A stretch of DNA of 64,000 bases from contig JANNXQ010000078.1 in the NCBI GenBank assembly GCA_031409655.1, forward strand, positions 32,001 through 96,000. Direction: 5' to 3'. The position numbers and the translations under genes are program-made. Positions 8,485-41,868 of the stretch are shown here, one piece after another. The DNA comes from Chthoniobacteraceae bacterium. Lineage in GTDB: Bacteria; Verrucomicrobiota; Verrucomicrobiia; Chthoniobacterales; Chthoniobacteraceae. The notes beneath the pieces were generated by a model. That model had not been told where the DNA came from and made no database searches. It saw only the letters and a program-made list of their open reading frames with translations. Each line of letters starts with the position of its first letter. The stretch's first letter is position 1.

Positions 8485-8572
8485 GGCGAAAATGATACGT
8501 CGCGATGGCCACCACGCCAGCTTTCATCGTGAGGCGACCAACGAACGCTCACTCGTTGCCTGCAACGCTCCG

Positions 8573-9954: not shown

Positions 9955-10069
9955 ACGCTTAGGATGTTTACTTTGGTCTGAGAATGCAATCCCAAAGCCA
10001 GCACCCTCATGACATAAGACGCTGCTGAGCGCATCCGCCTGATCCAACCATCAAATTCGACCCCCCAAT

Positions 10070-10474: not shown

Positions 10475-10478
10475 AACA
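10463..10478. promoter_or_regulatory. parS-like centromere site TGTTCCACGTAGAACA
   Basis: 16-bp near-palindrome, one mismatch to TGTTCCACGTGGAACA; overlaps the cdd stop and ends 3 bp before mnmG. Confidence 0.72.
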
Positions 10479-10481
10479 TAG

Positions 10482-12335: not shown

Positions 12336-12380
12336 TCGACGCCATCACTTTAGAGTTTAGAGCCCCAGTCAAGAATGCGG

Positions 12381-12397
12381 TTCCGTAGATTACGGAA
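12381..12397. promoter_or_regulatory. Operator-like palindrome TTCCGTA-GAT-TACGGAA upstream of the PEP-CTERM gene
   Basis: Perfect 7-3-7 inverted repeat in an AT-rich intergenic region; TTGACT (-35-like) at 12465-12470. Confidence 0.35.
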
Positions 12398-12566
12398 ACT
12401 GAGGGTTGTAGCCAGCAGCGTTAGCGCCCTTTGCAGTGCTTCGAAAACAATGCGCGAAAATCTATTGACTCACAATGCGCCTTCGGTTTAAAACCATCGA
12501 ATCCTTCTACCGGATAATATAAAAACAGCGGATAATCCAAAACCTCCACAAAATAAATTCACAGCA

Positions 12567-16430: not shown

Positions 16431-16446
16431 TGGGAGAGGCAAAAGG

Positions 16447-16558
16447 CGAACATCGAACATCGAACGTCGAACATCCAACATCAAACGCGGAATGAGTGCG
16501 CTGGCGGGCGGCGCTCGGAAGTTCGACGTTCGATGTTCAAAGTTCGACGTTCGATGTT
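16447..16558. repeat. Palindromic heptamer-repeat element (CGAACAT)n ... (GTTCGAY)n
   Basis: Same architecture as 964-1070; contains the stop codon of the ROK kinase gene. Confidence 0.85.
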
Positions 16559-17430
16559 AGCCCCAGCGCGAGCCGTCCGGCCCCGATCGCGCCGGCCCAT
16601 TCACCGAGCGCGGCGGGCATCACCTTCACGGCGCTGCCGCACGGTCGCCACTCCACTTTCGCGAGTTCCTCGCTGAGCGGAGTGAAGAGGGCGTCGCCGG
16701 CCTGCGCGATGCCGCCGCCGAGGATCACGGCTTCGGGGTCGAGAATATTGATGAACGAACCGATCGCGCAGGCCAGAGCGCTGATCGAGCGCAGCCACAC
16801 CTCCCGCGCAAAGCCGTCGCCATCGCGATAAGCCGCCACCAGCGCGTGGGTGGAATCGAAGCGGCCGGCGGTCCGCTCGCGGATGTTGAAATTGCCGATC
16901 GCACACTCGAGCGCGCCGGGCATGCCGGCGATGCTCCGTGGACCTTCAGGATCGAGACAGGTGTGGGCAAAGTGCCCGGCGCGCCCGAGGTGTCCGTGCA
17001 GAATTCGTCCGTCGCTCAAGATCCCTCCGCCGACGCCGGTACCCAGCGTGAGCAGGATCGCGTCGCGCAGCCCGCGCGCGGCGCCGATCCACGCCTCGCC
17101 CCCGAGGGCCGCCTGTCCGTCATTTGTCACTGGGATGGTGCTGGAGCGCTGGAGAAAATCGCCCCACACCAGATGCTCCAGGCCCTGCAATCGACCCGGC
17201 ATGGAAACGATGGACCGTCCATCCCTGGCTGCGAGTCCTGGGGCGGAAAGGCCCACGGGCAGTTCGGTTCCAAGTTCATCCGCGAGCGTCCGCACGACGC
17301 TGGCAAAGCGTTTCGCGTCGGCTCCGTCATCGTCGGTCTGGCGCATCTCCCGCCGCAAAACCTCCCCAGCCGCCGTGACGACCACGCCCTTGATCTGCGT
17401 TCCGCCGATATCGATCCCGACGGCCCTCAT
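16537..17430 (-). CDS. ROK family sugar kinase (glucokinase-like)
   Basis: GIDIGGT, NDGQAA.GEAWIGA, LTLGTGVGGG, ILGGGI. Confidence 0.9.
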   Translation of the reverse strand: MRAVGIDIGGTQIKGVVVTAAGEVLRREMRQTDDDGADAKRFASVVRTLADELGTELPVGLSAPGLAARDGRSIVSMPGRLQGLEHLVWGDFLQRSSTIPVTNDGQAALGGEAWIGAARGLRDAILLTLGTGVGGGILSDGRILHGHLGRAGHFAHTCLDPEGPRSIAGMPGALECAIGNFNIRERTAGRFDSTHALVAAYRDGDGFAREVWLRSISALACAIGSFINILDPEAVILGGGIAQAGDALFTPLSEELAKVEWRPCGSAVKVMPAALGEWAGAIGAGRLALGLTSNVEL

Positions 17431-17435
17431 CCGCG

Positions 17436-18227
17436 CTACTCGTGCTGACCTTCGCTCACGGACCACCCGCCATCCACGCTCAAGACCTGCCCGGTGCAAA
17501 ACTTTGAGGCATCGCTCAGGAAATAGATCGCAGCCGCGTCAAGGTCTTCCGGCTGGGCGATGCGACCGCCGTCGAGCGGCTGCTTGGTGCGGATGAAGCG
17601 TTGCATCTTCTCATCCTGCGCCGCGCGCTGCGACATCGGCGTCTCGACCAGCGCCGGTGCGAGCACATTCACGCGAATGCTGGCATCGGCGTAGTAAGCG
17701 GCAAGACTCGTACTCAGGCCGATGATACCCGCCTTGGCCGTCGCATAGGCGTGGGTGGCGAAGTAGCGCGGGGAAGGATGCGCAGCCAGCACGCTGCTGA
17801 CATTGAGAATGCTGCCGGGTGTATTCCGGGCGAGAAATTGCCGCACGGCCGCACGATTCGAGAGCATCACCGAAGTAAGGTTTAGCTCAAGCGTGGCGGC
17901 CCAGCCTTCGTCGGTGAGTTCGTGCAGCGGGCCATCGCCGTCTTTGCGTCCGCTCCCGCCGGCCACGTGGTAGAGACCGTGGAAGCCGCCAAACGCCGAG
18001 ATGGCTTCACCGATCGCCCGCTCCGCCGTTTCGGGTTTCGTCGCGTCGCCGGCAAACGCGAGCGCCTTCGACCCGAGCACCATTTCCGCGGCGGCAACGC
18101 TCTCCGGTTTTCGTCCTACGACGACGACGTGCGCGCCGGCTGCGATGAAGGCGCGAGCCGCGGACAGACCGATCCCGGTCGTGCCACCGATGATGACGAG
18201 AGATTTACCAGCGAGCGCGTTGGGCAT
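17436..18227 (-). CDS. SDR family oxidoreductase
   Basis: IIGGTTGIG, YATAK (YxxxK), VDGGW. Confidence 0.92.
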   Translation of the reverse strand: MPNALAGKSLVIIGGTTGIGLSAARAFIAAGAHVVVVGRKPESVAAAEMVLGSKALAFAGDATKPETAERAIGEAISAFGGFHGLYHVAGGSGRKDGDGPLHELTDEGWAATLELNLTSVMLSNRAAVRQFLARNTPGSILNVSSVLAAHPSPRYFATHAYATAKAGIIGLSTSLAAYYADASIRVNVLAPALVETPMSQRAAQDEKMQRFIRTKQPLDGGRIAQPEDLDAAAIYFLSDASKFCTGQVLSVDGGWSVSEGQHE

Positions 18228-18299
18228 GACGCGGAGCATAGGGCCTCGAGGTTTGCCGCGGCAATGCCCGCGACGAGCGGCGTCGGCGCGCCAGTTTCG

Positions 18300-19640
18300 T
18301 CACACTTTCCACGCCCCGCGATACTCGCGCGTGAGCCACTTCGCGTCGCCCGTGCCGCCAGCGAATTCGTTCTTCGCGGGGTCCCACTGAATCTTCTGCC
18401 CGTGCCAGTAGGCGAGGCTCGTGAGGTGGCAGGCGGTCACGGTGCGAGCGCCCACTTCCACGTCGCAGATCGGCGGCTTGCGGCTGGCGATGGAAGTGAG
18501 GAAGTCGGCCTTGTGATCGGTGCTCGCGTAGAGCTTCACCTTCGCGTCGGTCAGGAATTCCTTCTCCACCGCGTCGAGTTGCGCGGCCAGCTTGGGCTTC
18601 GCGTCCTTCTCCACCGCGTTTGCTTTCTCCGCGCCCATCAAGGTCATCTTGAACTTCCCGCGGTTCACGTAGATCACGCCGCCGGTGCCGTGGAAGGTCA
18701 CGCCGTTTTCCTTGATGTGCTCGATCTCGATGCCGCCGGCGTAACGCAGCTTCACGCCAGCGTCCGCGGTCTGCCAATCGCTCGGCGGGAGGATTTCGAT
18801 CGGCCCGCTGGCGTCCATGCCGAGGCCCCAGTGCGCGATGTCGAGATGATGCGCGCCCCGGTCGGTGACGCCGCCGCCGCCGTATTCGCGATAGGAGCGC
18901 CATTGCGGAAAATGATTATGCACACCGCGCGGGCTCAGGATTTCATTGAACTCCCGCTGCGGCGCGGGCCCGAGCCACAGATCCCAGTCGAGCCCCTTCT
19001 CCATCTCCTGCCCGGGCAGATCGCACGGTTTCGCCGGCCCACCGAAGCCCGCGGTCACGCGCGACACTTTGCCGATCACGCCGTTCCGCACGAGTTCGCA
19101 CGCAACGCGAAATTCTCGCGAAGACCGCTGCATCGATCCGGTCTGAAAGACGCGATTGTTTTTCCGCACTGCATCGACCAGAGCACGTGCTTCGTGAATC
19201 GTCTGTGTGAGCGGCTTCTCGCAGTAGATGTCCTTGCCCGCCTCCGCCGCGGCGATGGCGATGAGCGCGTGCCAGTGATCCGGCGTCGCGATGACGACGG
19301 CGTCGATATCCGTCCGTGCGAGCAGTTCGCGGTAGTCGTTGTACGCCGCGCAGCCTTTGTAAGTCGCGTCCGTCTTCTTCGCGTAGAAAGCCTCGGCGGC
19401 CTTCTTCCCATCCTCGCGGCGCGTGGCGTCCACATCGCACACCGCCACGGCCTGCGCTTCCGGCTTCGTCATGAGGCCGCTCATGAGTCCGCGCGCCTGC
19501 TTGCCGTAGCCGATCACGGCGAAATTGATCCGCGAGTTTGGCTTCGTCTCCGCGGACCAAATGCGCGACGGCAGGAAGAGCGGCGCGACGCCGGCGGCGA
19601 GGGTGGTCTTGAGGAAAGTGCGGCGAGTCGGGGTGTGCAT
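18300..19640 (-). CDS. Tat-exported Gfo/Idh/MocA oxidoreductase
   Basis: TRRTFLK Tat motif, IATPDHWHA, YCEKP, QTGSMQRS, WDLWLGPAP. Confidence 0.92.
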   Translation of the reverse strand: MHTPTRRTFLKTTLAAGVAPLFLPSRIWSAETKPNSRINFAVIGYGKQARGLMSGLMTKPEAQAVAVCDVDATRREDGKKAAEAFYAKKTDATYKGCAAYNDYRELLARTDIDAVVIATPDHWHALIAIAAAEAGKDIYCEKPLTQTIHEARALVDAVRKNNRVFQTGSMQRSSREFRVACELVRNGVIGKVSRVTAGFGGPAKPCDLPGQEMEKGLDWDLWLGPAPQREFNEILSPRGVHNHFPQWRSYREYGGGGVTDRGAHHLDIAHWGLGMDASGPIEILPPSDWQTADAGVKLRYAGGIEIEHIKENGVTFHGTGGVIYVNRGKFKMTLMGAEKANAVEKDAKPKLAAQLDAVEKEFLTDAKVKLYASTDHKADFLTSIASRKPPICDVEVGARTVTACHLTSLAYWHGQKIQWDPAKNEFAGGTGDAKWLTREYRGAWKV

Positions 19641-19709
19641 GGAGGGGAAGGTTTTGAGGTAAGTGATGGAAATCGAGCGCGTCCGAGCACGCAATGAATT
19701 AGCGCGCCG

Positions 19710-20372
19710 CTACTTCACGGTCTGTTCGAGCCCGAGTTTTTCGAGCACCTCTTTGGGCGGCCCATCAAAGGTCGCAAGCGGGATATTGCCGACGTAGCCG
19801 ATGGCCTTCCAGCCATCGACCGTGCTGAAGTATCCGCCGGCCGTGAGGCTGCGCATCTTGAGGAAAAAATGCGCGGGCCTTTTGAACTCAGCGGCGGTCG
19901 TGGAGCGATTGCAGATGTCGTCACAGATCGCGCGGTGTTGCGCGGCGTCGAGCGCGGCAAAGCCTTTCTGGAAGCGCTTCTGCGCCTCGGTGTCGAGCCA
20001 GGCGAGACCCTCCAGGATCATCGGACGATCCGCAGTTTGGATCGGATACGGAGCGCTCACCCATTCGTCAATGAACTCGGGCACACCCACCGCGCTCGCC
20101 GCAGGGCCGAGATCGTCGGCGGGGATGAGAATGTCGCAGAGCGTCTTCACGGTGAGGCGCTGTTTGGCGTCGAGGATCAGCGGCCAGGCGTCGCTGGGCT
20201 TGTACTCCTTCATCAGATTCGGGTCGGTGCCGTAGCCCTTCCTCGCGAGGGCGGCAGTCGTGCCGCTCTGGGCGAAGAGTTCCAGTTCACTCACGGACAT
20301 GGCCGCGCTGGCGGCGGCGAACCACTTGAGCACTTCGCGGCGGGAAAGGCGGGGACGGGGTTCGTTGTTCAT
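19710..20372 (-). CDS. Gluconate 2-dehydrogenase subunit 3 family protein (Tat)
   Basis: SRREVLK; 'LCDILIPAD..PAASAVGVPEFID', 'GGYFST..G..AIGYVGN'. Confidence 0.85.
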   Translation of the reverse strand: MNNEPRPRLSRREVLKWFAAASAAMSVSELELFAQSGTTAALARKGYGTDPNLMKEYKPSDAWPLILDAKQRLTVKTLCDILIPADDLGPAASAVGVPEFIDEWVSAPYPIQTADRPMILEGLAWLDTEAQKRFQKGFAALDAAQHRAICDDICNRSTTAAEFKRPAHFFLKMRSLTAGGYFSTVDGWKAIGYVGNIPLATFDGPPKEVLEKLGLEQTVK

Positions 20373-20384
20373 GCGGGTGCCTGG

Positions 20385-22175
20385 TTACAGCGCTCCTTTG
20401 CGGGCTTGTTCGATGAGGTAGTCGCCGGTGCGCCAGGCGAGCGCCATGATGGTGAGCGTCGGGTTCTTATCGGCGTTGGAAGGGAAAGGAGAGCCATCGC
20501 AGAGGAAGAGATTCCTCACGTCCCACGTCTGGTTCCATTGGTTGCACACCGATTTCTTCGCGTCGTCACCCATGATCGCGCCGCCGACTTCGTGGATGAT
20601 CTTCCCGCCAGTCTCAATATAGGAGAGCGGATCGTCGGACTTCGGAGTGCGCACCGTGCCACCCATGGCTTGGATGAGTTCCGAAAAAGTCCGGCGCGCG
20701 TGAGCCGCCTGCTTTAGCTCGTGCTCGCTCCATTTCCAGTGCCAGCGCAGCACCGGCACGCCCCACTTGTCTTTCACCGTCGGATCGAGCTCACAGAAAG
20801 AGCCTTCATTTGGGATCATCTCGCCGCGACACGCGTAACCGACAAACGAGCCGTAGTAACGGCGCGCCTCTTCCTTAAACTTCGACCCATAACTCCCGAG
20901 CGTCAGATCATCCGGCACCGGATTGCCACCCATCGGCATATTCCGCGAGCCACCCATCTCGATGTGATACCCACGCGGGAAATCCGTCTTACCCGCGGCC
21001 TGCTCCTGGTAAAGCCACCACGGCGAGTAGAAGTGCGATCCGCCAGCGCCGTCCTCGTTGTGCGGCGGACAATTTTCCAGCATCGGGATATGCCCGTTCA
21101 CGCCGGTGCCGACCGTGTCCATGATGTACTTGCCGACGAGCCCACTCGAATTCGCGACCCCTTTGCCGCCATTCGAGTTCAGCAGGATACGCACGGTCTA
21201 GCCGCTGCTCGCCGCCACTACCACCGCCTTCGCTTTGACGCGCTGCTCACTGCCATTGGTCTTGTCGATGAAGAGCACCCCGGTCGCCTTGCCGTCCGCA
21301 CCCATCAGGATTTCGCGGGCGTGGGCATTGGGGATGATGTCGAGATTCTCCGTCGCCAATGCAGGCGGAAGGTGCACCGTCGTCGATTGGTAGTTCGCGC
21401 GAATCGAGCACCCGCGCCCACAATCCGTGGCCCAGAAACACGCCGCCCGCGCGCGCATGGCTTCCGCGACGATCTTTTGAGCCCGTTCATTTCCGGGATG
21501 CAGCTTCTGCGGGATGTTCTCCCAATCGAGCGCCTTGGTCAGCACGGCGCGATGGATCGGCATGAAAGGAATGCCAAGCTTCTTGCCATACTTTTGCGAG
21601 AGCAACTCGGCGACGCGACCCTTCGGCGGCGGGAGTAACACACCGTCTGGCGAGTCGGGCGTGTTTTCCATCCCGGAGTTCGTGCCATAGACACCGATGA
21701 GCATCTCGACCTTCGTGTAGTAAGGATCGACGTCCTCGTAACTCACTGGCCAATCGAAACCCAGCCCATCGCGAGTGCGCGGTTTGAAGTCGTAAGGTCC
21801 ATTGCGTAGCGAGATGCGGCCCCAGTGATTCGTGCGCCCGCCGAGCATGCGCGTCCGCCGCCACATGAACTGCTCCTCCTCTTTCTCCGAAGCCTGCGTG
21901 TAAGGCTCGCCCGGCACCTCCCACCCGCCATCGATCGTCGCATCGTAGAAGCCAAAATTTTTCTCCGGCGTCTTCTCGCCGCGCAGCGGTGCCTGATCCC
22001 CGCGCTGAAACATCGGCGTCTCCGTCAGCGGATCGTAGTTCCGCCCCGCCTCCAGCATCACGCACTTCAGTCCCGCGAGCGTGAGCGTGTAAGCCATCTG
22101 CCCGCCGCCCGCACCGGAACCGATGATGGCAACGTCGTATTCAGTTTTTGCCTGGGAAGCGGAGATGATGGGCAT
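20385..22175 (-). pseudogene. GMC family FAD oxidoreductase interrupted by an in-frame TAG at 21198-21200
   Basis: N-half has IIGSGAGG and LGGRTNHWGR; the frame reads VVVAASSG*TVRILLNS into a C-half with HEVGG and KNPTLTIMALAWR. Confidence 0.8.
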
Positions 22176-22214
22176 TGTTGGAATGCGGGTGCTGTGGTGG
22201 GAACGGACGCTGGC

Positions 22215-23594
22215 TCAACGGCGCGCCGCCAATTGTTTCTGCAAGCCGGCCAGGGTGGAAGCATTCGCGGGAAGCGCAGCGACGTTGTGCCATTCCCCGG
22301 GGTCCGCCTGATGATCGTACAGTTCGAGTTTCCCGTCGCTCCACTCCGTGAGCCGCCAGCGCTCCGTGCGCAGGGAAAAACCACTCATGCCGCCACCCCG
22401 CACGAGATGCGTGAGCGCGCTGTCGCGGATGGCTTGCGCCGGATCGTCGAGCAATGGCGCGAGGCTCTGCCCTTTCACCGTGGCCGGCACAGTGAGCCCG
22501 CAGAGCCCAACGACGGTCGGGTAAATATCGAGAAACTCGACGAGGCTGCGGCACACCGCGGGCTTCACTTCAGGCGCGACGATGAGCAGCGGCGCACGGC
22601 AGGAGCGGTCGAAGAGCGTGTTCTTATTCCACCAACCGCGCTCGCCGAGATGGTAGCCGTGATCGCCCACAAAGATGACCACCGTCTTCTCCCAAAGCTT
22701 CAGCCGGTCCATCGCGTCCATGAGCCGCCCGACCTGCGCATCCGTCTGCGACGTACCGGCATAGTAGTGCGTGAGAAAGTCCTTCCGGTCCGCATCCGTG
22801 AACTGCGCGAAGGCCGCCTCGAAGGCTCCACCGCCGAGCGTCTGCTTGAACATTGGTGTCGCATCCGCCGGATCGCGATGCAGCTTCAGCGACCCCGCGG
22901 GAAACTGCGCGACGTAACGCTTGCCCACCACAAAGGGATCGTGCGGTCGGTGAAATCCCGCGCCGATAAACCACGGCTTGCCCGCGAGCCGCTCCATCGC
23001 CGCGATCGCCTGCTGCGCCGTCTGCCCGTCGGATTGATCGTCGTCGGTTCCTTCGAGATCCGCCACCTCGCACCACTTCAAAGTGCCCCCCGTGAGATTC
23101 CGCCGCGGCCCGGTGTTCCCGAGCTTCGTCGCCTTGAACATCTTCGCCTCATCCCACGATTTCGCGCCGTCGAGAAAACGATTCTCCGCCTGCCCCTCGG
23201 TCCCTCCCGCGTGGTAGATCTTCCCATAAGAAACCGCGGTCGCCCCATGCTGCCGGAAGAGCTCCGGCAGCGTCACGATGTCCGGCATGGTCTCGCGGAA
23301 GAAAGTGCCGTTGCCCGTCACGCCATTCACCTCCGGCCGTGTGCTCGTGAGCATCGAAGTGCGGCTCGGATTGCACACCGGATACTGCACGTAAGCCCGA
23401 TCAAACCGCACCCCGCGCGCGGCGAGCCGATCGAGATTCGGCGTCTTCGCCTGCGCATCGCCGTAGCAGCCCAGCGCCGGCCGAAGATCATCCGCCATGA
23501 TGAGCAAGACATTGTAACGCGGCGCATCCGCAGCGCGCAGCGCGGCCAGTGAGCCGAGCAGGATGGCGGCGAGGGTTGCGATGATTTGTTTCAT
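22215..23594 (-). CDS. Sulfatase (iduronate-2-sulfatase-like)
   Basis: Signal peptide; NVLLIMADDL, CNPSRTS (CxPxR), GKIYH, RPHDP, GDHGYHLGE. Confidence 0.93.
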   Translation of the reverse strand: MKQIIATLAAILLGSLAALRAADAPRYNVLLIMADDLRPALGCYGDAQAKTPNLDRLAARGVRFDRAYVQYPVCNPSRTSMLTSTRPEVNGVTGNGTFFRETMPDIVTLPELFRQHGATAVSYGKIYHAGGTEGQAENRFLDGAKSWDEAKMFKATKLGNTGPRRNLTGGTLKWCEVADLEGTDDDQSDGQTAQQAIAAMERLAGKPWFIGAGFHRPHDPFVVGKRYVAQFPAGSLKLHRDPADATPMFKQTLGGGAFEAAFAQFTDADRKDFLTHYYAGTSQTDAQVGRLMDAMDRLKLWEKTVVIFVGDHGYHLGERGWWNKNTLFDRSCRAPLLIVAPEVKPAVCRSLVEFLDIYPTVVGLCGLTVPATVKGQSLAPLLDDPAQAIRDSALTHLVRGGGMSGFSLRTERWRLTEWSDGKLELYDHQADPGEWHNVAALPANASTLAGLQKQLAARR

Positions 23595-23885
23595 GGTGTG
23601 ATGCCGATCGTGTCCGCGACGTTCGCGATCGGGAGCGGGGCGACCTTTGGCGGCGCCTGCGCGACGAAAGTGCCGGGGGGACGAAGTGCGGATCGGTGAA
23701 CGGAGGCGAACAAGCGGGAATGTTCGCCCGTAAATCTCACCGTCGGCAATCCGTAAGAGCGATTTTGCGTCGCCGATGAAGTCGCCGCGGATGCTGTCTT
23801 CGGCTCCCGGTCGCGCGGGCGCCGGCAGAAAGTCTCATCACCTTTCGCGTGGCGACGGGGGCGAGAAGGAGACTACATTCACCGC

Positions 23886-24833
23886 ATGGCGACGACCAAA
23901 CAACTCGCAGAACTTTTCCGCGCCGTCGCAGGGCACGACATGCCTCGTGCCGTGGAATCTGCGCGGCGCATCGCCCAGATCGAAGCGGACAAGGGCAATC
24001 ACAGCGCTGCGCGCGACCTGCTCGGCTCGCTCAACGGCTACGCCACGCCGGGGCATGCCGGTCATTCACATCCCATCGCGCAGAGCCTGACCGCGCAGCA
24101 GTGCGTGTCCTTTCTCCCCCACTCCGCGACGCTCGACGCGCTTGAACTCCCCGCCGCACTCCGCGCGGAAATCTTGGAGCTTTCCGCCGAGTGGAGGCAC
24201 CGCGCCGAGCTACGGGCGCAGGGCATCCCACGCCGCTGGCGGCTGCTTTTCCACGGCCCGCCTGGCTGCGGGAAAAGCGCCACCGCCGCCGCGCTCGGCC
24301 AGCTCGTTGGCCTCCCCGTGTATCTTGTGCGCTTCGATGCACTCATCGGCGCGTATCTCGGCCAGACTGCACTGCGCCTCCGGGAAGTCTTCCGCTTCGC
24401 CACCGAAAATCCGTGCGTGCTGCTCTTCGATGAAGTGGATGCGCTGGCGAAACGTCGCGGCACACCAATGGAAGTCGGCGAGATCGACCGCGTGGTCATC
24501 GCCTTCATGCAGGAACTCGAACACGCCTCGCCCGAAGGCTTCATCATCGCCACCTGCAACCTCCCGCACTCGCTCGACGACGCCCTCTGGCGCCGCTTCG
24601 ACCTCCCCGTAATTTTCCCCAAACCCACCGCCAAACAGCTCACCACCTTCGCCCGCAAACGCTGCAAGCAACTCGGTTTCGCGCCATCGAAAAAACTCCC
24701 GCTGCTCGCCGCCAAAGCGGGCAACTACGCCCGCGCCGAACAACTCATCGCCGACGAAGCGAGGCGGCGCGCGCTGGCGAAACTAACAGGACGCAGCGCC
24801 AGAACTCACCTTTTGCAAAGTCACAATGCCTGA
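23886..24833 (+). CDS. AAA+ ATPase resembling the ATPase partner of S8 proteases (IetA-like)
   Basis: Walker A GPPGCGKS, Walker B LLFDEVD, 'IIATCN...LDDALWRRFD'; N-terminal 'ARRIAQIEADKGNHSAARDL'. Confidence 0.85.
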   Translation: MATTKQLAELFRAVAGHDMPRAVESARRIAQIEADKGNHSAARDLLGSLNGYATPGHAGHSHPIAQSLTAQQCVSFLPHSATLDALELPAALRAEILELSAEWRHRAELRAQGIPRRWRLLFHGPPGCGKSATAAALGQLVGLPVYLVRFDALIGAYLGQTALRLREVFRFATENPCVLLFDEVDALAKRRGTPMEVGEIDRVVIAFMQELEHASPEGFIIATCNLPHSLDDALWRRFDLPVIFPKPTAKQLTTFARKRCKQLGFAPSKKLPLLAAKAGNYARAEQLIADEARRRALAKLTGRSARTHLLQSHNA

Positions 24834-25731
24834 AATTCCGAAACCAACTGCGAGCGAAATTGCTTCCGCCATTCCAGAAGTCACTGATGCGACCGTGGTC
24901 AAGTCGGGTGGCTTCAAGGTCGTGTATCGCGCGACCATCAATGGCCGGACGGAAGCTTTGAAGCTGGTGCATATTCCATCGTTTGCGGGAATTGATGACC
25001 CGAAGCCGTTTCAAGACGAGTGTTTGGCGCGAGTGCGGCGCGAAGTGCAGACGCTCGCCGACTGCCAAGATCCGAATGTCGTGAAGCTCGGCTCCATCGC
25101 TCCGCGACAAGTGGCAATGCTCGGTGAATCGCTCATCGCGTACTCGGAGGAATTCCTGCCGGGTAAAGACCTCCGCGCACACATCAAGGATGGATGGCGG
25201 CCCGGTGAGCCCGAACTCCGCACCCTTTTCCTCACGCTGATCACCGCCATTAAATCACTCTGGGAATTACCCAATCGCGTCGTCCACCGCGACATCAAGC
25301 CGGACAACATCATCCGGCTGGACGACGACGCCCGCCCGTTCGTGCTTCTCGACCTTGGCATCGCCTACGCCGTATTCGATACCGCGCTGACGGTGAATCC
25401 AGAGCAGCGGTTGCCAGTCGGGACGTTCCCGTATCTGGCGCCGGAAATGTTCCAGCCAAACTTTCGCGACACGATTGATTACCGCAGTGACCTCTACGCC
25501 GCGGCGCTCACGGTCTATGAGTGCGCGACCGGGCGGCATCCGCTCGCGAGGGAAGGCGAATACCTCGTGAAAACGCTGACGCGCATCCTGCAAGACACGC
25601 CGCCTCCGCTCCGCAGCGCGCGGGCCGACTTGTCGCCGGTGCTCTGCGAGATGGTGGATGGGATGTTGAAAAAACGCCCGGCACTGCGCCCGGCGAACCT
25701 TCCATCGCTCATCAACAAGCTCCAATCCTGA
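24826..25731 (+). CDS. Stand-alone Hanks-type Ser/Thr protein kinase
   Basis: SGGFKVVY, ALK, RREV, HRDIKPDN, DLGIA, GTFPYLAPE, SDLY; no TM or sensor domain; overlaps the ATPase stop. Confidence 0.92.
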   Translation: MPEIPKPTASEIASAIPEVTDATVVKSGGFKVVYRATINGRTEALKLVHIPSFAGIDDPKPFQDECLARVRREVQTLADCQDPNVVKLGSIAPRQVAMLGESLIAYSEEFLPGKDLRAHIKDGWRPGEPELRTLFLTLITAIKSLWELPNRVVHRDIKPDNIIRLDDDARPFVLLDLGIAYAVFDTALTVNPEQRLPVGTFPYLAPEMFQPNFRDTIDYRSDLYAAALTVYECATGRHPLAREGEYLVKTLTRILQDTPPPLRSARADLSPVLCEMVDGMLKKRPALRPANLPSLINKLQS

Positions 25732-25733
25732 CC

Positions 25734-26924
25734 ATGAAACTCTACGCACAGCACGGATTTGGCGATGGGGACAAGGTCGCTACGGGATTGGAGAGGGGCT
25801 TGATTGACGGGGCCATCCTCGGTGCCAAAGACCTGCCGGCGGAAAAACTATCCGCCAAGCTCGGCGACCTGCGCGCGGCATCGGCGGGTGCGACGCTGGT
25901 TTTCGACCCGCAGTTTTACGTGAGCCTTCTCCGCAACAACGGTGCGCTCCGCCTCGGCGCACTGGAAAGCTACGATTACTTCCGCAGTTGGCGGCGCAGT
26001 CAGCTTGAGTCGTCCGAACGGGTCGCCGAAGTGCTGGACAGTGCGCTCGAATTTCAAGCGGCAGTTCCACAACTGGACGCGCTTATCGCACCGAACATTC
26101 TCATCTCCCGTTCATTCGATTCCGCCGAGGCGGTGATTGCGAAGAACTTCATCCGGGCGACAGCGAACCGGCACCGACAGACGGGAGACGCGCGGCCTGT
26201 TTTCGCGACGCTGGCTGTGTCGCGCGAGGCGCTGCTTCACACGGATGAATTCGAGAGTTTCCTTGCCGACATCACGCTGCTTGATGAGCCGCCAAACGGT
26301 TTTTACCTCCTCATTGGCGCATCCAGCAGCGAAGCGCGCGGCGAGATTCTCCACGCTGATGTCATCGCCGCGTGGATGCTGCTCAACCGCTCGTTGAAGC
26401 TGAACGGCTTTGAAGTCATCAATGGCTACTCGGATTTGCTGACACCCTTCCTTGCCGCTGTCGGGGCCGATGCCGGTGCTACGGGATGGTTCAACACACT
26501 CCGCGTATTTTCGCTGGAGCGTTTCGGCCCCGCCGCCGGGATGGCGCGGCAGCCGCTGCCGCGCTACCTGTCCGCGCGACTCCTAAATCGCCTGACTTTC
26601 GTCGAACTCAACGCGATGCGGGCGATGTTCCCAAAGATGCTGAATCGCCTGCCCACCGACGCTAGCTTTCCCAGCGACGATGAACCGGAACGAATTGCCG
26701 AGGCGTTTCAGGCATGGGAGGCATTACGAACGATGAGCGCAGCAATGTCCGGCGGCGACATCTCCGCCAATCTGGCGGCGTGCGAACTAGCCGTGGCGGA
26801 GGCGCGAAATGCCTACGGCACTATTGCCGCCGCTGGCTTCCGACTCGGGCCGAAATCCGGAGGCGACCACATCGCCGAAATCCACGAGGGACTTACCGCC
26901 TTCCGCGAGTCCGCAGAACTTTGA
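25734..26924 (+). CDS. Uncharacterised 396-aa alpha/beta protein, third gene of the kinase cassette
   Basis: ATG 2 bp after the kinase stop; globular composition with motifs MKLYAQHG, FDPQFY, GYSD, TGWFNTLRVFS, RYLS. Confidence 0.75.
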   Translation: MKLYAQHGFGDGDKVATGLERGLIDGAILGAKDLPAEKLSAKLGDLRAASAGATLVFDPQFYVSLLRNNGALRLGALESYDYFRSWRRSQLESSERVAEVLDSALEFQAAVPQLDALIAPNILISRSFDSAEAVIAKNFIRATANRHRQTGDARPVFATLAVSREALLHTDEFESFLADITLLDEPPNGFYLLIGASSSEARGEILHADVIAAWMLLNRSLKLNGFEVINGYSDLLTPFLAAVGADAGATGWFNTLRVFSLERFGPAAGMARQPLPRYLSARLLNRLTFVELNAMRAMFPKMLNRLPTDASFPSDDEPERIAEAFQAWEALRTMSAAMSGGDISANLAACELAVAEARNAYGTIAAAGFRLGPKSGGDHIAEIHEGLTAFRESAEL

Positions 26925-27543
26925 CACTCCGCATCAGCGTCTCCACCGCCCGCGCACGGGCACGCGGGCTGAGTGGCTTGGCGGGGCGCGGTGAGTAGTG
27001 GCGGACGATGCGGGCGGTGTCGGCGTCGAATGACCAGAGGCCGACTTTCAGATGGCGAAAGAGGTCGAGCTTTTCCATCGCGAGTCTCGCGGCCGACTTC
27101 GGCAGAACGACGTAGGCAGCGTTTGCGAACCAGCGGTAGCGGCACGCCTGGCTGAGCGCCTTGCGCCAGTCGGTGAGCTTCATCTCGAAGGCGAGCAGCG
27201 ACTCGTCGCGGATGAATGTCTCGTTGCGAAGCTCGACTGCGCGGCCTTCATCGCGGCTGCCCGCATTCGTCCAGACGAACCACACAAAATCCGCGACACC
27301 GAAACCGGCGACCGCCAGCTCGCGCGCGGGCATGGACGAGCGCGGGCGGCCCGCTTGCATCCGCTCCGCGAGATAGGCGCGGCTAAACGCGAGGACGAAC
27401 CCCGATTCGCCCCGCTTGCGGCTCACATTGGCCGGTAAATTTTTGCGGGTGTTTGTCGCGATGGAAATCGGCGGATGGTCGGTGGCGCAACGCACGCTGC
27501 GTCTGTAACCGCCAGGATTCGCGACCGCAAGTGGCGCACTCAT
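26893..27543 (-). CDS. PD-(D/E)xK nuclease-like protein (MmcB/sce7726-like motif set)
   Basis: 'GFGVADFV' ... 'AFEMKLTDWRKALSQACRYRWFA' (D...ExK...QxxxY); convergent, 32-nt overlap with the previous gene. Confidence 0.65.
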   Translation of the reverse strand: MSAPLAVANPGGYRRSVRCATDHPPISIATNTRKNLPANVSRKRGESGFVLAFSRAYLAERMQAGRPRSSMPARELAVAGFGVADFVWFVWTNAGSRDEGRAVELRNETFIRDESLLAFEMKLTDWRKALSQACRYRWFANAAYVVLPKSAARLAMEKLDLFRHLKVGLWSFDADTARIVRHYSPRPAKPLSPRARARAVETLMRSVKVLRTRGRR

Positions 27544-27553
27544 TTTCCGCCGC

Positions 27554-28813
27554 TCACGCGCCCTTCGGCTTGATGAACATGACCTCCGCGCGGTCGATCC
27601 AGCCTTTGCGCAGATCGAGGCGGAACCAGCCGTCGCTGTTTTTCCGGTGGATGCGGCAGCCGGAGCGCGGGCCGAATTCCTTCAGGTCGTACTGCGCCCA
27701 CGTCTTGCCCATGTCGGGCGAGTAGATGATGCCGTTCGCGTAGGTCGAGGCCGGGGCACAATGCGTCGCGAGCATCACGCCGTCCTGGATGATCATGTTC
27801 GCGGATTCGAACTTCGGGTTGAAGAGCAGCGTGTGCTTGGTCGTGTCCGTGATGTCCGCCGGCGCGCAGGTGAAGATGCCGCGATCATGCTCGGGGCCGA
27901 CCTTCGGGCCGTTCGCGTCGGCGATCCAATAGACGCGCCCGTCCACGAAGTTGATCCCGCCGCATTTGAAACGGGAGTCGGAGTTCACGCTGATGATCAC
28001 TTTCCAGCTCCACGCATCCGCCTTCGCGTCGTAGGTGCCGCGCAGCCAGTGGCACTCGTTGCCGTGGCCGCGGTCGATGTCGCCGGTGCACGCGTAGAAG
28101 GCGTTCTCGGTCGGGCTGTAGGTCACGTTGTGGATGTGGCGGCAGATGACCGGGTTCGTCGCGTCGCCGAGCAACGGCGCATCCGGCGCGGCGCCCTTTT
28201 GCTGGAACTTCGGATTCTGCCCGAACGAATACGCGAGCTTCACCGTCTGCCCGTTGTCGGTGGAGTAGAAGATATTCACCGGCACCGCGCCGCCGACCAC
28301 GTTGCAGTAGTTGCCCCACACGAGCATCTCCTTGCCATCCACCTCGAAGCAGTGCTCGCCATCGAGCGGATGAAAATACCAGCCGGGCAGTTCCGGATTC
28401 ACCGGCTTGTGCGGGAGGTAGTCACTGCCGTCGCGATTCTTCACGATGATCTCGCGGTGCGTCTTCAGATTGTCCGTGCTCAGGAAAAGATGCGTGGTCG
28501 TGGCGAAGAGGATGTTCCCATTTTTCAAAATGACGCTGAACGTGACCGCGTCCGCATAGGGAAATTCCGCGCTGTGCGCCCACGTCTTTGCATTGTCCTC
28601 CGAGAGGAAAATCTTCCCGTCGCCGAAGCCGAATGCCTTGTTGTCACGCTGCGAATCGATGTATGGCCCCTCCGGCGCGCCGCGGTAGAAGAAGTGCTCC
28701 GTCTCCCGGATGTCCGAGCGCGCGGCGCTGAGTCTGTGTGGCAGCAGGAAGCTGCCCGCGGTGGCCGCCGTGGCCCCGAGCCACTGGCGGCGTGTGAGTA
28801 ATGGGCTTTTCAT
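27554..28813 (-). CDS. Tat-exported BNR/Asp-box beta-propeller protein
   Basis: TRRQWLG Tat motif; Asp-box-like SEDNAKTW, STDNGQT, SPDMGKTW; ATGA overlap with the upstream gene. Confidence 0.7.
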   Translation of the reverse strand: MKSPLLTRRQWLGATAATAGSFLLPHRLSAARSDIRETEHFFYRGAPEGPYIDSQRDNKAFGFGDGKIFLSEDNAKTWAHSAEFPYADAVTFSVILKNGNILFATTTHLFLSTDNLKTHREIIVKNRDGSDYLPHKPVNPELPGWYFHPLDGEHCFEVDGKEMLVWGNYCNVVGGAVPVNIFYSTDNGQTVKLAYSFGQNPKFQQKGAAPDAPLLGDATNPVICRHIHNVTYSPTENAFYACTGDIDRGHGNECHWLRGTYDAKADAWSWKVIISVNSDSRFKCGGINFVDGRVYWIADANGPKVGPEHDRGIFTCAPADITDTTKHTLLFNPKFESANMIIQDGVMLATHCAPASTYANGIIYSPDMGKTWAQYDLKEFGPRSGCRIHRKNSDGWFRLDLRKGWIDRAEVMFIKPKGA

Positions 28814-29997
28814 ATTTGCTTCGCCGCGGTCGGGCGTACCTTGAAATGGGCGAGGTAGATGTTCGCGGGATTGAAGGCCGCGCCCTTGGCCGTCGGAAAT
28901 TCGTGCGATGAGTAATAGCAGAGCAGCACCTCCCCGCCCTTCGGTCCGTCGGCGAAGCTTTGATACGCGTTGTCGCCGCCGCTGGGGATGATCCACGGGT
29001 TCTCGAGTCCGTTCTCGGTGACCGTCCACACTTTGCAGACCGCAGGATAACCATCAGGCCGAGGCTCGCGCACGTCGCGCGCGGAAAGCAGCAAGCCGCC
29101 GTCCTTCAACGCGTGCAGCGCGGGCCCGCCGAAATTGTTCACGCCGGTGGCGTAGGCCCGCCAGGGACCGTTGGGCTTCGCGCCGAAGACGATCACGCCG
29201 TCCTTCGAGGTGCGAATGGCCGAGACGAGCGTGCCGTCGGGCGTCCACGCCACATCGGCCTCGTGGCCCCAGCCGGTGCCGGGGCCGCCTTTGTGCATCG
29301 CGGCGGTCGGGCCTTCGCCGTAGGTGTGCAGCGCCTTGAATTTCACGCCATCCTCGGAGCGGTAGAGGATCAGGCCGAACAACCCGGGCGAGCCCTCCGC
29401 CTTGTTCCCGCAGCGCGCAAGGCTGTAAAACGCGCCGTCCGGGCCTTTGCGAATGCGGAAAAGCCAGCGGCGACGGTTGGGAGTGAGCACGAGTCCGCTG
29501 CCCGGCTTCGGCTCGACGAACTCCGACTCCAGCTCGCGCGGCTCGCTCCATGTCACGCCGTCGGCGGATTGCGAATAGAAATCTTCCTTCGAGTGAAAGA
29601 CGACCTGGACCTTGCCGTGATTGTCGAACACGAGCGGATCGCGGCAGTCGTGGTCGCGCGTGAACTCGGCGACCTTGTCCCACTTTTTCAAATCCTCGGC
29701 TTTCGCGCGGATGACGGTGATCTTCGACTCCGGTGCCTGATGCGAGTCCGACGTGCGGAATGAGACGTAGTAGAAGTCGCCGACGCGCGCGATGCCGGGG
29801 AATCCGTTGTGCCGCCCGTCGGTCCAGATGGTCTGCGAGTAATAAAATGAAACCATCGGGCGTGGCAGCGGCTTCACATCGAGCGAAAGATCCGGTGCGC
29901 TCGCAGCGCGGGCTGGAAGCGCACGACCGCCCGCGGCGAGGACGGAGGCTTGAAGCGTCGTGTGGAGGAAGCCGCGTCGAGTGAGATGGGTGTTCAT
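28810..29997 (-). CDS. Tat-exported sialidase-like beta-propeller protein
   Basis: TRRGFLH Tat motif; 'HNGFP', 'DCRDP', SADGVTWS, SEDGVKF, 'GGDNAY', 'YYSSHE'. Confidence 0.7.
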   Translation of the reverse strand: MNTHLTRRGFLHTTLQASVLAAGGRALPARAASAPDLSLDVKPLPRPMVSFYYSQTIWTDGRHNGFPGIARVGDFYYVSFRTSDSHQAPESKITVIRAKAEDLKKWDKVAEFTRDHDCRDPLVFDNHGKVQVVFHSKEDFYSQSADGVTWSEPRELESEFVEPKPGSGLVLTPNRRRWLFRIRKGPDGAFYSLARCGNKAEGSPGLFGLILYRSEDGVKFKALHTYGEGPTAAMHKGGPGTGWGHEADVAWTPDGTLVSAIRTSKDGVIVFGAKPNGPWRAYATGVNNFGGPALHALKDGGLLLSARDVREPRPDGYPAVCKVWTVTENGLENPWIIPSGGDNAYQSFADGPKGGEVLLCYYSSHEFPTAKGAAFNPANIYLAHFKVRPTAAKQI

Positions 29998-30043
29998 GTG
30001 AGAGAGTCTCGTAACGTCGAAGCCACAGCGTCGTTCCATGTAT

Positions 30044-31147
30044 TCATTTTCCCAACTCGCCGCAAAGCGCCAGCGCCCGCAGCGCCTGCGCGGTGCTGAT
30101 GTAGGTGATGTAGTGATACGTGTCGCGGTAGAGCGACTTCATCCACCAGCGCCCGCTCTCGCGCTGATTCGCCTTCAGCCACGCGACACCCTTTTGAATC
30201 CGCGCATCGTCCGCCGGCACGCCGCTCTCGCGCAGCAGCACGATGGCCCACGCCGTCAGGTAAGGATCGCTCGCCGGGCTGGCCGCGTCGGGCTCGCCCT
30301 GGATCATCGTCACGACCTTGGGGTCCATCGTTTCGTGCCACTTCATGAGGTCCGACATGCGCCGCGTGGACCACCCGCCATCCGGCTGCTGCCGACGCCA
30401 GAGCATCGCCGTCGCCGGCGCGCGCACCGGTGGCGGCACGAGGTCCGGCATGAGCGCGGAAAGCTGGAGCTTCAGCGCGAGTTCGTAGTCATTCACCGGC
30501 TCGTGTTCGCGCAGGAAATTCTTCATCCGCTCGACGCGTGCGAGCGTGTCGGCGTCCTTGAGATTCGCCAGCCAGCCCGGCGCGGTGGTGATGGCGCGCG
30601 CCGCCTGCACGGTCAGCTCGAAGTCCGTGGTGATGTAGGGAATCTCCACCTGCTTGATCGTGCGGAAAAATCCTTCGTCCGTGAGCAGCGTGAGCGTGTG
30701 CCGCAGCGAACGGTCGGTGTGCTCGCTGAGCTTGCCTGCGACGTGCTTGTCCCACGAAGCGAGACCGGAACTGCGCCACACGGATTTGATCGGGCTGGCG
30801 TCCTTGCCGCCATCCTTCGGCACCTCGTCGATGAAGTCCGCGAGCACCTCGTCGCTCGGCTGGCCGAGCCACGGCGTCAAAGCCGAGCGCTCGACCATGT
30901 AAACGCCCGTGCTGTGACACGCGATGCACGACTTTTCCCGAACCCAATGATGCGCGCCATCGTCGAGATATTTTGCCGCCGCCTGGATCGTCTCAGGTCC
31001 GAACGCCTTCACCCGCGGCTCGTCCGCCGTCGCTGCCGGGACTTCGATGCCCGCAGACTTGTATTGAAACTCCGGCTTCGGCTTCGTCTCGACCGCGTGC
31101 GCCGTGACGGCAACTGCTGCGAGGATGGCGATGAGGGAGGATTTCAT
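30044..31147 (-). CDS. Secreted prenyltransferase/squalene-hopene-cyclase-repeat protein with CxxCH
   Basis: Signal peptide; CIACH; QW-type repeats QQPDGGWS and NQRESGRW. Confidence 0.7.
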   Translation of the reverse strand: MKSSLIAILAAVAVTAHAVETKPKPEFQYKSAGIEVPAATADEPRVKAFGPETIQAAAKYLDDGAHHWVREKSCIACHSTGVYMVERSALTPWLGQPSDEVLADFIDEVPKDGGKDASPIKSVWRSSGLASWDKHVAGKLSEHTDRSLRHTLTLLTDEGFFRTIKQVEIPYITTDFELTVQAARAITTAPGWLANLKDADTLARVERMKNFLREHEPVNDYELALKLQLSALMPDLVPPPVRAPATAMLWRRQQPDGGWSTRRMSDLMKWHETMDPKVVTMIQGEPDAASPASDPYLTAWAIVLLRESGVPADDARIQKGVAWLKANQRESGRWWMKSLYRDTYHYITYISTAQALRALALCGELGK

Positions 31148-31235
31148 GGCGCAGAGATGCTGCACGATTCGAGCAATCTGGGCAGCATTCCTTTGGCCTG
31201 CGCCTCGCGGGCCCAGGCGCACGGCGGCGCTGATC

Positions 31236-33191
31236 CTACTTCGCCGCGGCATCGCGGGGCGGGCTCGGCAGAGGTGCTTCGGGGGTGAGCGAGAAATTGC
31301 GGAAGCCGGCCTTGCCGCCGATGAGCACGAAATCCACGCCGCCTTTCTCGCGCTCGAAAATCTGGTCCGTCGCGCTGAACTTCGTGCCGCCGATTTCGCC
31401 GTCGAGATTGATGCCGTCGAACTTGAGGGTGAGCGCGTGCCATGTGCCGGGCGTAAGGGCGACCGGGACTTTCTTGAGGATCACGTTCTTCTCGCCGGTC
31501 ACGTCGGCAAACGTAATGCGGTCGGCGGCGATGTCCGTGCGGATGATCACGTCGCCCGCCGGGTCGCGGAAGCGCAGCGTGAACTGGCTGTCGGGCGCGA
31601 GGTTGAACTCGTAGCCCAGCATGCCGTTGCGGAACTCCGCCGGGCCGCGCAGCAGCGCGTCCTTGTTCTCGGCATTCAGCGATGCCCAGAGCGCGCCGTC
31701 CTTCGCCTCCCAAGTTCCGCGCTGGGCCTTCCACGGCTTGCCGGGGAGCTTCGCAAAGGACTCGCGAATGGTGCCATCCTTCTCGATGTTCGCGGCTGCG
31801 TCGGGCGATTTGGGAAGCGGGACACCTTTGGTTTTCTTGCGCTCGCTCTTGGGCTTCTTCGTCTTTGCGCCCTCGGGCAGCGGCATCCCGAAACGCTTTG
31901 CACCGGCTTTGATGGGGTTCGCCATTTCGGCCAACCAGGCGTCGTGGAGCTTCGTGAGTTCGGCGACTTTCTCCGGCATCTGCTGCGCGAGATCATTTTT
32001 CTCCGCCACGTCCTTGCCCAAATCAAAGAGGCCCGTGCGCGCCTTCTCACCGACGAGTTTCCAATCGCCAGAACGCACCGCCCACCAGCCCTCCTCGCTG
32101 CCTGCGGACCAGAAAAGATTGCGCAGCGGCAGCGTCTCGTTGCCTTGCAGGATCGGCAGGATGTTTTTCCCATCGAAAGGCTTCGCGTCCACTGGCGCGA
32201 CGCCCGCCGCCGCGAGCGCGGTCGGGAGAATATCGAGCGCGATGACGGGCGCCTGACTCTCGCCGGGCTGCAATTTCGCCGGCCAACAGACGAGAAATGG
32301 TACCCGGATGCCGCCCTCGTAGTCCTGATGTTTGCCGCCGCGCAACGGCGTGTTCACCGCCGACTGCGCGAGCGGGCCGCCGTTGTCGCTGATGAAAAAC
32401 AGCAGCGTGTTTTCCCACACGCCTTCCGCTTTCAGCGTCGCGACGACTTTGCCGATCGCGTCATCCATCCGCTTTCCCATCGCGAGGAGTGTGTTGCGGT
32501 CGGCGTTGCCGGTGTTGAATTTTGCGATCTCATCCGCGGGCGCCTGGAGCGGCGCGTGGACGGCATTGAACGCGAGATACACGAGGAACGGCTGCGCTTT
32601 CTTTCGCGTGATGAATGCCGCGGCCTCCTCGCCGAGCCGGTCCGTGAGATAGCCCGTCTCCTGCACCGGCGTCGTGCCTCGGTAGATCGGATCGTCCGGA
32701 TCGTTGAGTTTGAAATAATCGTGCGCGCCGCGGCCGAGGAAGCCGAACACTTCATCGAACCCGCGCAACGCCGGGCTCCACGCCACATCCGGCCCGAGGT
32801 GCCATTTCCCAAACTGCGCCGTCGCGTAGCCCGCCGGTTTGAAATGCTGCGGGAAAATCTTCTCGCTCATCGGCAACCCGCTCCCCGCCTCGCCGCCCGT
32901 GTAGAGCCCGAGCCGCTGCTGATACCGCCCCGTCATCAGGCCGGCGCGCGTCGGCGAACACACATGCCCGCTCACATAGCCCTGCCGGCAGATCACGCTC
33001 GCCCTCGCGAGCGCGTCGAGATGCGGCGTGGTGATTTCCTTCGGATGCGCGGGATTGAAGCGCACATCCGCGTAACCGAGATCATCCGCGACGATGACGA
33101 CGATGTTCGGTTTCGGTTCGGCAGCGCTGAGCAGGGCAGACGCGGCGAGGAGCACGGCAAGAAGTTTGGAGGTAAAGACGGTCGTTTGCAT
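31236..33191 (-). CDS. Sulfatase with a C-terminal beta-sandwich domain
   Basis: KPNIVVIVADDLG, CSPTRAGLMTGR, GKWHLG, SDNGG, YEGGIRVP; Lys-rich linker then an extra domain. Confidence 0.93.
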   Translation of the reverse strand: MQTTVFTSKLLAVLLAASALLSAAEPKPNIVVIVADDLGYADVRFNPAHPKEITTPHLDALARASVICRQGYVSGHVCSPTRAGLMTGRYQQRLGLYTGGEAGSGLPMSEKIFPQHFKPAGYATAQFGKWHLGPDVAWSPALRGFDEVFGFLGRGAHDYFKLNDPDDPIYRGTTPVQETGYLTDRLGEEAAAFITRKKAQPFLVYLAFNAVHAPLQAPADEIAKFNTGNADRNTLLAMGKRMDDAIGKVVATLKAEGVWENTLLFFISDNGGPLAQSAVNTPLRGGKHQDYEGGIRVPFLVCWPAKLQPGESQAPVIALDILPTALAAAGVAPVDAKPFDGKNILPILQGNETLPLRNLFWSAGSEEGWWAVRSGDWKLVGEKARTGLFDLGKDVAEKNDLAQQMPEKVAELTKLHDAWLAEMANPIKAGAKRFGMPLPEGAKTKKPKSERKKTKGVPLPKSPDAAANIEKDGTIRESFAKLPGKPWKAQRGTWEAKDGALWASLNAENKDALLRGPAEFRNGMLGYEFNLAPDSQFTLRFRDPAGDVIIRTDIAADRITFADVTGEKNVILKKVPVALTPGTWHALTLKFDGINLDGEIGGTKFSATDQIFEREKGGVDFVLIGGKAGFRNFSLTPEAPLPSPPRDAAAK

Positions 33192-33202
33192 AGTTTCGGT
33201 GA

Positions 33203-41715: not shown

Positions 41716-41868
41716 GGGGGGATTTTGGCTGGTTACTGGGTTACATTCGCAACGCTCATTGAAACGTGAGCGTGCGGATCGGGGAAATTGAGGCCGAGGC
41801 ACCGCCCCAAAGGTCAGGAGCGGAAATTTTCTGAGCTCGCGCCGATTCAGGCATGGATCGGCAGTCGT

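Follow-up and report, generated by a model that had tools for sequence, protein, structure and literature searches.

The genes considered here lie at positions 23886-27543 of a 64,000-nucleotide window (the whole stretch of DNA that was analysed, from contig JANNXQ010000078.1 of a Chthoniobacteraceae bacterium) and were originally predicted to form an undescribed defence system of four components, namely an AAA ATPase, a Ser/Thr kinase, an unknown protein and a convergently transcribed PD-(D/E)xK nuclease (Table 1). A recheck of the open reading frames (ORFs) recovered all four genes together with the 8-nt overlap, the 2-nt gap and the 32-nt convergent overlap that had been reported between them. 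The ORFs on both sides (15651-23594 and 27554-35161) are located on the minus strand, as had been described for a plus-strand block within a minus-strand run, and the sugar and sulfatase character also ascribed to that run is an assignment by eye only. The highest 19-residue hydropathy across all four proteins is 1.75, within the D-L-G region of the kinase. Predicted terminators were uninformative (7 versus 3.9 +/- 2.0 in shuffled sequence), and a promoter scan of the locus gave no sites.

Table 1. Features of the locus and their positions in the window
Feature	Position	Strand	Size or remark
AAA ATPase ORF	23886-24833	+	315 aa
Ser/Thr kinase ORF	24826-25731	+	301 aa
TGT-fold barrel ORF	25734-26924	+	396 aa
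PD-(D/E)xK nuclease ORF	27543-26893	-	216 aa as called; probable start GTG 27495
Junction DNA between ietA homology end and kinase start	24785..24825	+	
Convergent 3' overlap, barrel gene / nuclease gene	26893..26924		32 nt

The conserved unit at this locus is a trio of kinase, barrel and nuclease genes rather than all four genes, the barrel being the 396-aa protein, so called after its predicted fold. A GTDB scan with this protein gave 106 relatives, and the 79 loci returned form the genome set used below; adjacency was counted only where a locus extended far enough, with at least 300 nt available for the kinase and at least 1.7 kb of upstream sequence for the ATPase. A kinase gene lies directly upstream of the barrel gene in 76 of the 77 genome loci with room (the exception being L043), and a convergent nuclease gene directly downstream in 78 of 78, the 3' ends of the barrel and nuclease genes overlapping by 6-84 nt at all 78 loci that hold both. 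A further 80 loci came from metagenomes, although some of these contigs coincide with GTDB loci; where there was room, the kinase was identified in 65/66 and the nuclease in 64/66 of them, and the three misses all involve partial barrel matches. The grouping of kinase, unknown protein and nuclease is therefore recurrent, as predicted, and these are the only near-universal genes around barrel homologues. The barrel family comprised 447 relatives in one search and 531 representative clusters at 50% identity in another.

Genes inherited as a unit would be expected to show correlated pairwise identities, and those of the three genes are indeed correlated across 68 loci (Spearman 0.58-0.65, versus at most 0.19 for the best of 200 permutations). 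All three genes are also present at each of nine loci of a distant clade (two Bacillus plasmids, a Natribaculum plasmid, three viral contigs and three genomes), the nuclease being weak at one of them (L104, E 0.0014); the gene order is nuclease, kinase, barrel on one strand in six of the nine and convergent in the other three. In a tree of 42 barrel proteins built by a quick method, the co-directional forms are separated from the convergent clade of the window, and no order of events is claimed because long branches meet there and the root is a midpoint root. Decayed copies of the trio were noted as well, with the kinase lost at L043, kinase and barrel frameshifted at L054 and L072, and a split barrel at L083.

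For the AAA ATPase, membership in the system was predicted but is contradicted by its distribution. The ATPase is found beside the trio in only one of the 64 genome loci with sufficient upstream sequence (it is present in 2/79 overall) and in none of the 80 metagenome loci. It matches the PADLOC IetA model with an E value of 1.8e-58 over residues 2-298, and the NCBIfam IteA model at 171 bits, under the equivalog cut-off of 510. Relatives with 53-92% identity occur in five of 120 genomes of the family, none of which is among the trio carriers, and in all five an IetS-like protein is encoded within a few bases downstream (PADLOC E 1e-14 to 5e-26, on partial sequences). In blastn, the window is 91% identical to locus L199 and 84% identical to L200, and both alignments stop at position 24784, two codons before the stop codon of the relatives. 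The frame continues from there through the upstream DNA of the kinase gene, with the last approximately 14 ATPase codons being a non-homologous read-through, and the 8-nt overlap with the kinase start is an accidental by-product of the junction. The ATPase was rejected as a component of the trio by its rarity there, the IetS pairing of its relatives and the break at 24784.

Compared with ietAS, the window ATPase resembles IetA models over its full length but differs in that the downstream slot of the S8 peptidase IetS is taken by the kinase gene; no ietS was detected elsewhere in the genome (94.9% complete) by tblastn with the IetS of a relative, and the ietAS pair is therefore broken here. 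In the available part of PMC5006074, IetA is described as the antitoxin and IetS as the toxin, and a stranded ietA would accordingly be harmless. On sequence grounds, the ATPase is an orphan ietA antitoxin gene left after the loss of its ietS partner, and the trio has taken the place of ietS at the end of the ietA gene. One contig from a public sequencing run covers 23364-25311 with no differences, although that run may be the source sample itself; among the junction joins listed from public runs, none skips the cassette cleanly, no RNA run carrying the locus was listed, and same-genus genomes share the flanks and are too fragmented to reveal an empty site. At another locus (L031:711-1706) a second and distant IetA-like ATPase (34% identity) was identified 130 nt upstream of the trio, which may reflect a separate insertion into an ietAS pair.

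The kinase is a stand-alone Hanks-type protein devoid of sensor or membrane domains (Pfam Pkinase, E 5e-23). It has the VAIK Lys, alphaC Glu, HRD, DFG and APE features, and none of the 64 aligned homologues shows a substitution at K46, E73, HRD154-156, K158, N161, D176, G178, P206, E207 or D222, in agreement with the Hanks motifs first read from the window. The glycine loop is of a variant form (GGFK), Thr189 in the activation loop is invariant, and the catalytic motifs are intact. Its best PADLOC model is PD-T4-6 (E 3e-36), and it is a soluble Hanks kinase like the stand-alone defence kinases, among them Stk2. However, the PD-T4-6 match is generic (approximately 120 bits, as obtained by many kinases), and the window-type kinase gene invariably comes with barrel and nuclease genes. 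The name PD-T4-6 is absent from the available part of the text of PMC9519451.

For the barrel, the label of unknown protein was correct insofar as no family matches it, but it overlooked a predicted fold of the tRNA-guanine transglycosylases (TGTs). The AlphaFold2 (AF2) model has a predicted local distance difference test (pLDDT) score of 93.5, and in a structure search of 48,161 chains its top four matches were all members of the TGT family: arcTGT (1iq8; Z 20.3, root-mean-square deviation (rmsd) 3.3, 296 aligned, model residues 1-396 versus 34-357 of 1iq8), bTGT (Z 19.2), DpdA (Z 15.7) and QTRT2 (Z 15.6). The best unrelated barrel scored Z 14.7, and Cap10 (9ntn) Z 13.8 (rmsd 4.0, 270 aligned). 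What the model shares with TGTs is the (beta/alpha)8 barrel and the C-terminal helical subdomain, that is, the whole chain. The link is structural only, as hhalign comparison with TGTs was not significant (P 0.2-0.3%, with a shallow target alignment of six sequences). No significant match to the barrel was found in Pfam, NCBIfam, PADLOC or PHROGs; PDB sequence searches with the barrel and nuclease profiles gave nothing significant, an ESM Atlas search returned unnamed clusters only, and a viral structure library gave weak generic barrels only. The genome of the window also encodes a second, canonical TGT within a 695-aa frame (L110:1378-3462); the C-terminal extension of this frame, some 300 aa long, resembles a methyltransferase as judged by eye.

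By motif mapping, the active site within the predicted fold appears extensively altered. The general acid/base Asp of strand beta3 (DSGG in TGTs, D95 in DpdA) is kept as Asp58 at the end of strand 54-58, which corresponds by motif to D84 of the TGT alignment and is invariant in all 111 sequences compared. By motif mapping, the nucleophile position of strand beta8 (G-x-D-x-F-D, D256 in DpdA) corresponds to A249, five residues past G244, and is occupied by A in 89 sequences, G in 10, C in 5, S in 5 and T in 2, with no Asp or Glu at positions 248-250 in any of the 111. Mapped in the same way, the base-reading Asp of beta4 is replaced by T/N/S (N121 in the window), the Gln/His of beta5 by A/V/L (A161), and the GG loop of beta6 (193-194) is hydrophobic. 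The CxCxxC Zn site is present in none of the 111 sequences, and 47 of them have a His at position 326. According to the available part of PMC10164549, three invariant active-site Asp and the Zn site are needed in TGTs and DpdA, and the mapped loss of the nucleophile and Zn site would therefore preclude base exchange. The barrel is probably a pseudoenzyme, as judged from the motif mapping, and its features fit a ligand- or partner-binding pseudoenzyme and not a transglycosylase. A remodelled pocket (Q6-H7-G8, D58-P59-Q60, Y191, G231-Y232-S233-D234, G251-W252, R257 and R277-Y278) is conserved on the C-terminal face of the barrel, with Asp58 in 111/111, Trp252 in 110 and Tyr191 in 109 sequences, and with Arg277 and Tyr278 also strongly kept. 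The protein is acidic, with an isoelectric point (pI) of 5.2 (family median 5.2-5.6) compared with 6.4 for true TGTs.

The nuclease carries the D...ExK...QxxxY motifs attributed to it, with E46, D85, E120, K122, Q132 and Y136 unchanged across all 69 homologues, and its catalytic motifs are intact. An S/T184-P185 pair is conserved in it as well. Its AF2 model (pLDDT 85.3) has a restriction-endonuclease fold with E...D...ExK and QxxxY, in keeping with the PD-(D/E)xK assignment, and the closest folds were SPO1766/3dnx (Z 12.0, rmsd 3.7, 136 aligned) and PaqCI (Z 10.2). Homologue consensus and lengths suggest that translation probably starts at GTG 27495, for a product of about 200 aa. The window protein has a pI of 11.3 (family median 9.4-10.2), and most of the distant members contain a winged-helix insert of about 60 residues between D and ExK. 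No significant match to the nuclease was found in Pfam, NCBIfam, PADLOC or PHROGs, and relatives of the barrel and nuclease gave only generic helix-turn-helix matches and a stray Cmr1_C match in two of 69 nucleases.

The trio is patchily distributed and mobile, and it occurs near restriction systems. The 79 genome loci represent 15 named phyla, with eight loci unassigned, and the carriers include plasmids (two of Bacillus and one of Natribaculum), viral contigs and a haloarchaeon. The trio was identified in three of 120 genomes of the family (one being a weak fragment), in none of three genomes of the same genus and in five of 351 genomes of another phylum, and no phage record was found in INPHARED. 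Within 4 kb of the trio, 351 neighbouring proteins reached 150 aa or more; 277 of them were cluster representatives, and 239 of these representatives were scanned with PADLOC over their first 700 aa. The restriction-type neighbours belong to type I, II, IIG and III restriction-modification (RM), BREX and DISARM-like systems, and further matches were to Hma, AbiEii, Uzume, PD-T7-4, PD-Lambda-2, HEC and PDC proteins; the majority of the scanned representatives had no PADLOC match. Of the 79 loci, 37 (19 of 37 near-full-length loci) have an RM, BREX or DISARM-like gene no more than 10 kb away, or 28 (15 of 37) when self-hits are removed, compared with five of 222 20-kb tiles of the genome of the window, a comparison that agrees with the expected closeness to defence genes and is indicative only.

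Several of these neighbourhoods deserve mention. At four loci (L015, L028, L037 and L039) the trio lies within a recurring cassette. It is preceded there by genes for a sigma-54 activator of RtcR/CARF-like type and for a type I RM system (R, M, S), and followed by those for an AAA_15/DUF3696 ATPase and its partner. On the Natribaculum plasmid (L081) a calcineurin-like metallophosphoesterase gene directly follows the barrel gene (7162-7851), possibly as a counter to the kinase, and a large DNA-methyltransferase-like ORF lies upstream of the trio. On one viral contig (L084:3309-12060) the trio is placed, by eye, between helix-turn-helix/metallopeptidase immunity-type genes and an integrase gene, a typical cargo position.

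The statement that no named system combines these genes holds for the trio, which has no match in PADLOC 2.0, NCBIfam 20, Pfam or PHROGs; no description of it was found in the literature, where the supplementary candidate tables of large computational screens could list it. The trio appears to operate like a nuclease-effector defence or toxin-antitoxin module, and it does not belong to TGT/DpdA, type IV CBASS (cyclic oligonucleotide-based antiphage signalling system), ietAS or sce7725/sce7726. Along its entire length, the C-terminal helical part included, the barrel has the fold of TGTs and DpdA, and it shares their beta3 Asp, but it keeps only one of the three active-site Asp, lacks the Zn site and gave no significant profile match to the six-sequence TGT alignment. 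Type IV CBASS likewise has a TGT-like TIM barrel in a defence operon, Cap10, without the TGT Zn site. The available portion of the report on Cap10 (10.1101/2025.04.06.647259) describes it as binding a basic partner via an acidic surface, as keeping the nucleophile D248 and the base readers D73/D122, and as needing a QueC-like Cap9 and a CD-NTase. By contrast, the window barrel has Ala at the nucleophile position and its partners are a kinase and a nuclease; among the 239 of 277 neighbour representatives scanned with PADLOC no CBASS model was matched, and no QueC-like motif was seen. BRC systems also involve a TGT, in a different architecture, as far as described in the available part of PMC12839542.

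The sce7726-sce7725-RES arrangement (NF033831 and its partner) is another point of comparison, consisting of a basic PD-(D/E)xK-like gene and an acidic 300-aa partner followed by RES in three of five loci. The window nuclease is weakly related to the sce7726-side nuclease (hhalign P 53.6%, E 1.3e-4), but a kinase stands in place of RES and the barrel has no detectable relation to sce7725. Membership of the barrel in sce7725/Beta (P4 Beta), which we take to be a TIM barrel, was rejected (hhalign P 0.4%; NF033831 matched by 0/111 members), and NF033831 was found in none of 151 genomes of the phylum of the window, where the control also gave no match. The sce7726-sce7725 pairs examined (L113-L117, with RES next in three of five) show the same pattern of a basic nuclease and an acidic partner, and their C-terminal His helix aligns weakly with that of the barrel.

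Taken together, some anti-phage or anti-plasmid role of the trio, whichever of the readings below is adopted, seems fairly likely. We tentatively favour, with a confidence somewhat short of even, a mobile three-gene abortive-infection or toxin-antitoxin-like anti-phage module with the nuclease as effector, the pseudo-TGT as restraint and the kinase as switch; the composition, predicted folds, motifs and context of the trio are observations, whereas the binding, phosphorylation targets, trigger and anti-phage activity that follow are inferred. The trio would have inserted at the end of ietA, replacing the toxin partner ietS. The acidic pseudo-TGT would bind and restrain the basic nuclease, in the manner in which Cap10 holds CdnD, and sense a ligand through its remodelled pocket. 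The kinase, auto-activated via Thr189, may phosphorylate the barrel or the nuclease, and this phosphorylation, or its loss on infection, would hold or release the nuclease, which would cut DNA once released. In support of this reading, the barrel and nuclease families differ in charge (pI 5.2-5.6 versus 9.4-10.2), and Cap10 offers a precedent of a TGT repurposed to hold a defence partner inactive (10.1101/2025.04.06.647259, in the portion available). In a more specific version, considered rather doubtful, the trio would be an undescribed immune system of both bacteria and archaea whose TGT scaffold has become a non-catalytic receptor for a phage-specific nucleotide, modified base or phospho-mark and couples the kinase to nuclease release. 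Such a phosphorylation-gated nuclease immunity built on a TGT pseudoenzyme would be a use of the fold distinct from those in Dpd and type IV CBASS.

A number of observations weigh against the restrained-nuclease module. Charge complementarity is weak evidence, as most nucleases are basic; the TGT relation is at the level of the fold only, and the mapping of the active site relied on where the strands lie and how the motifs are spaced in the TGT alignment, not on residue-level superposition. In the clade of the window the nuclease gene is transcribed opposite to the kinase and barrel genes, which is unusual for a toxin-antitoxin operon, and L043 keeps a nuclease beside a 5'-truncated barrel after loss of the kinase. 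The enrichment beside RM genes is inflated by seeds drawn from the same loci and by a one-genome baseline, 42 of the 79 loci lack an RM-like neighbour, and the copy in the window is located among sugar and sulfatase genes, outside any defence island.

Among other explanations, an unlikely one is modification-dependent restriction, in which the TGT-derived pocket would read a flipped modified base (e.g. 7-deazaguanine) in phage DNA and recruit the nuclease, with the kinase as a back-up or regulator. The nearest folds of the barrel (arcTGT, bTGT, DpdA and Cap10) handle deazaguanine, the DSGG-equivalent Asp58 is invariant, the trio often lies inside type I, IIG or III RM clusters, and other defences target deazaguanine phages (GrwAB, PMC12137116; Dag1/2, 10.1101/2025.10.29.685425; each as described in the available part of the source). 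However, the replacement of the second Asp by N/T/S and of the Gln by A/V/L, together with the hydrophobic GG loop, argues against base reading, and an acidic barrel is poorly suited to DNA binding. Slightly less probable still is that the barrel is an active enzyme with a new chemistry and that the nuclease is activated by its product or by an abasic site; it would then be a glycosylase or hydrolase that uses Asp58, or would have a nucleotide or a phosphorylated ligand as its substrate. The strongly conserved pocket (Asp58, Trp252, Tyr191 and Arg277/Tyr278) is consistent with this, as are Gly231 and Gly251 at positions where TIM barrels presumably often bind phosphate, but no second conserved acid is found near strand beta8, Asp234 lies at a helix start in the model, and a crude SGG[LMI]DS scan detected no QueC-like motif among the neighbours.

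A selfish addiction module stabilising mobile DNA, or a stress (DNA-damage) module processing damaged DNA, in either case without an antiviral role, is given the same low weight as an enzymatic barrel. It would explain the presence of the trio on plasmids and viral contigs, the many loci without defence neighbours and the top fold match of the nuclease to SPO1766/3dnx, presumably a member of the MmcB-like DNA-repair family. However, the trio is enriched beside RM and other defence genes, and it is carried by approximately 1-3% of genomes, unlike a housekeeping repair gene. As for a system of four genes, with the ATPase acting jointly with the trio, the intact ATPase frame overlapping the kinase start by 8 nt and the IetA-like ATPase just upstream at L031 speak in its favour, but it is very improbable in view of the near absence of the ATPase from genome and metagenome loci, the consistent pairing of its relatives with IetS and the homology break at 24784.

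With regard to significance, the trio is a compact, nearly invariant and clonable three-gene candidate defence module that was overlooked by PADLOC 2.0, NCBIfam 20 and Pfam despite a range of at least 15 named bacterial phyla, Bacillus plasmids, viral contigs and a haloarchaeon. With the barrel, the TGT superfamily gains a large family that has no annotation and is apparently a pseudoenzyme. This would be another instance of the queuosine-pathway scaffold being drawn into immunity, now tied to signalling by kinases, a process whose part in the immunity of bacteria is poorly understood. The locus also appears to provide an example of a defence module that, at one and the same site, has taken over from ietS, the toxin of another such module. 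Elsewhere in the window, stretches of lower G+C content at positions 3001-13000 and 40001-42000 (0.55-0.61, versus approximately 0.64 in the remainder) may be other acquired DNA.

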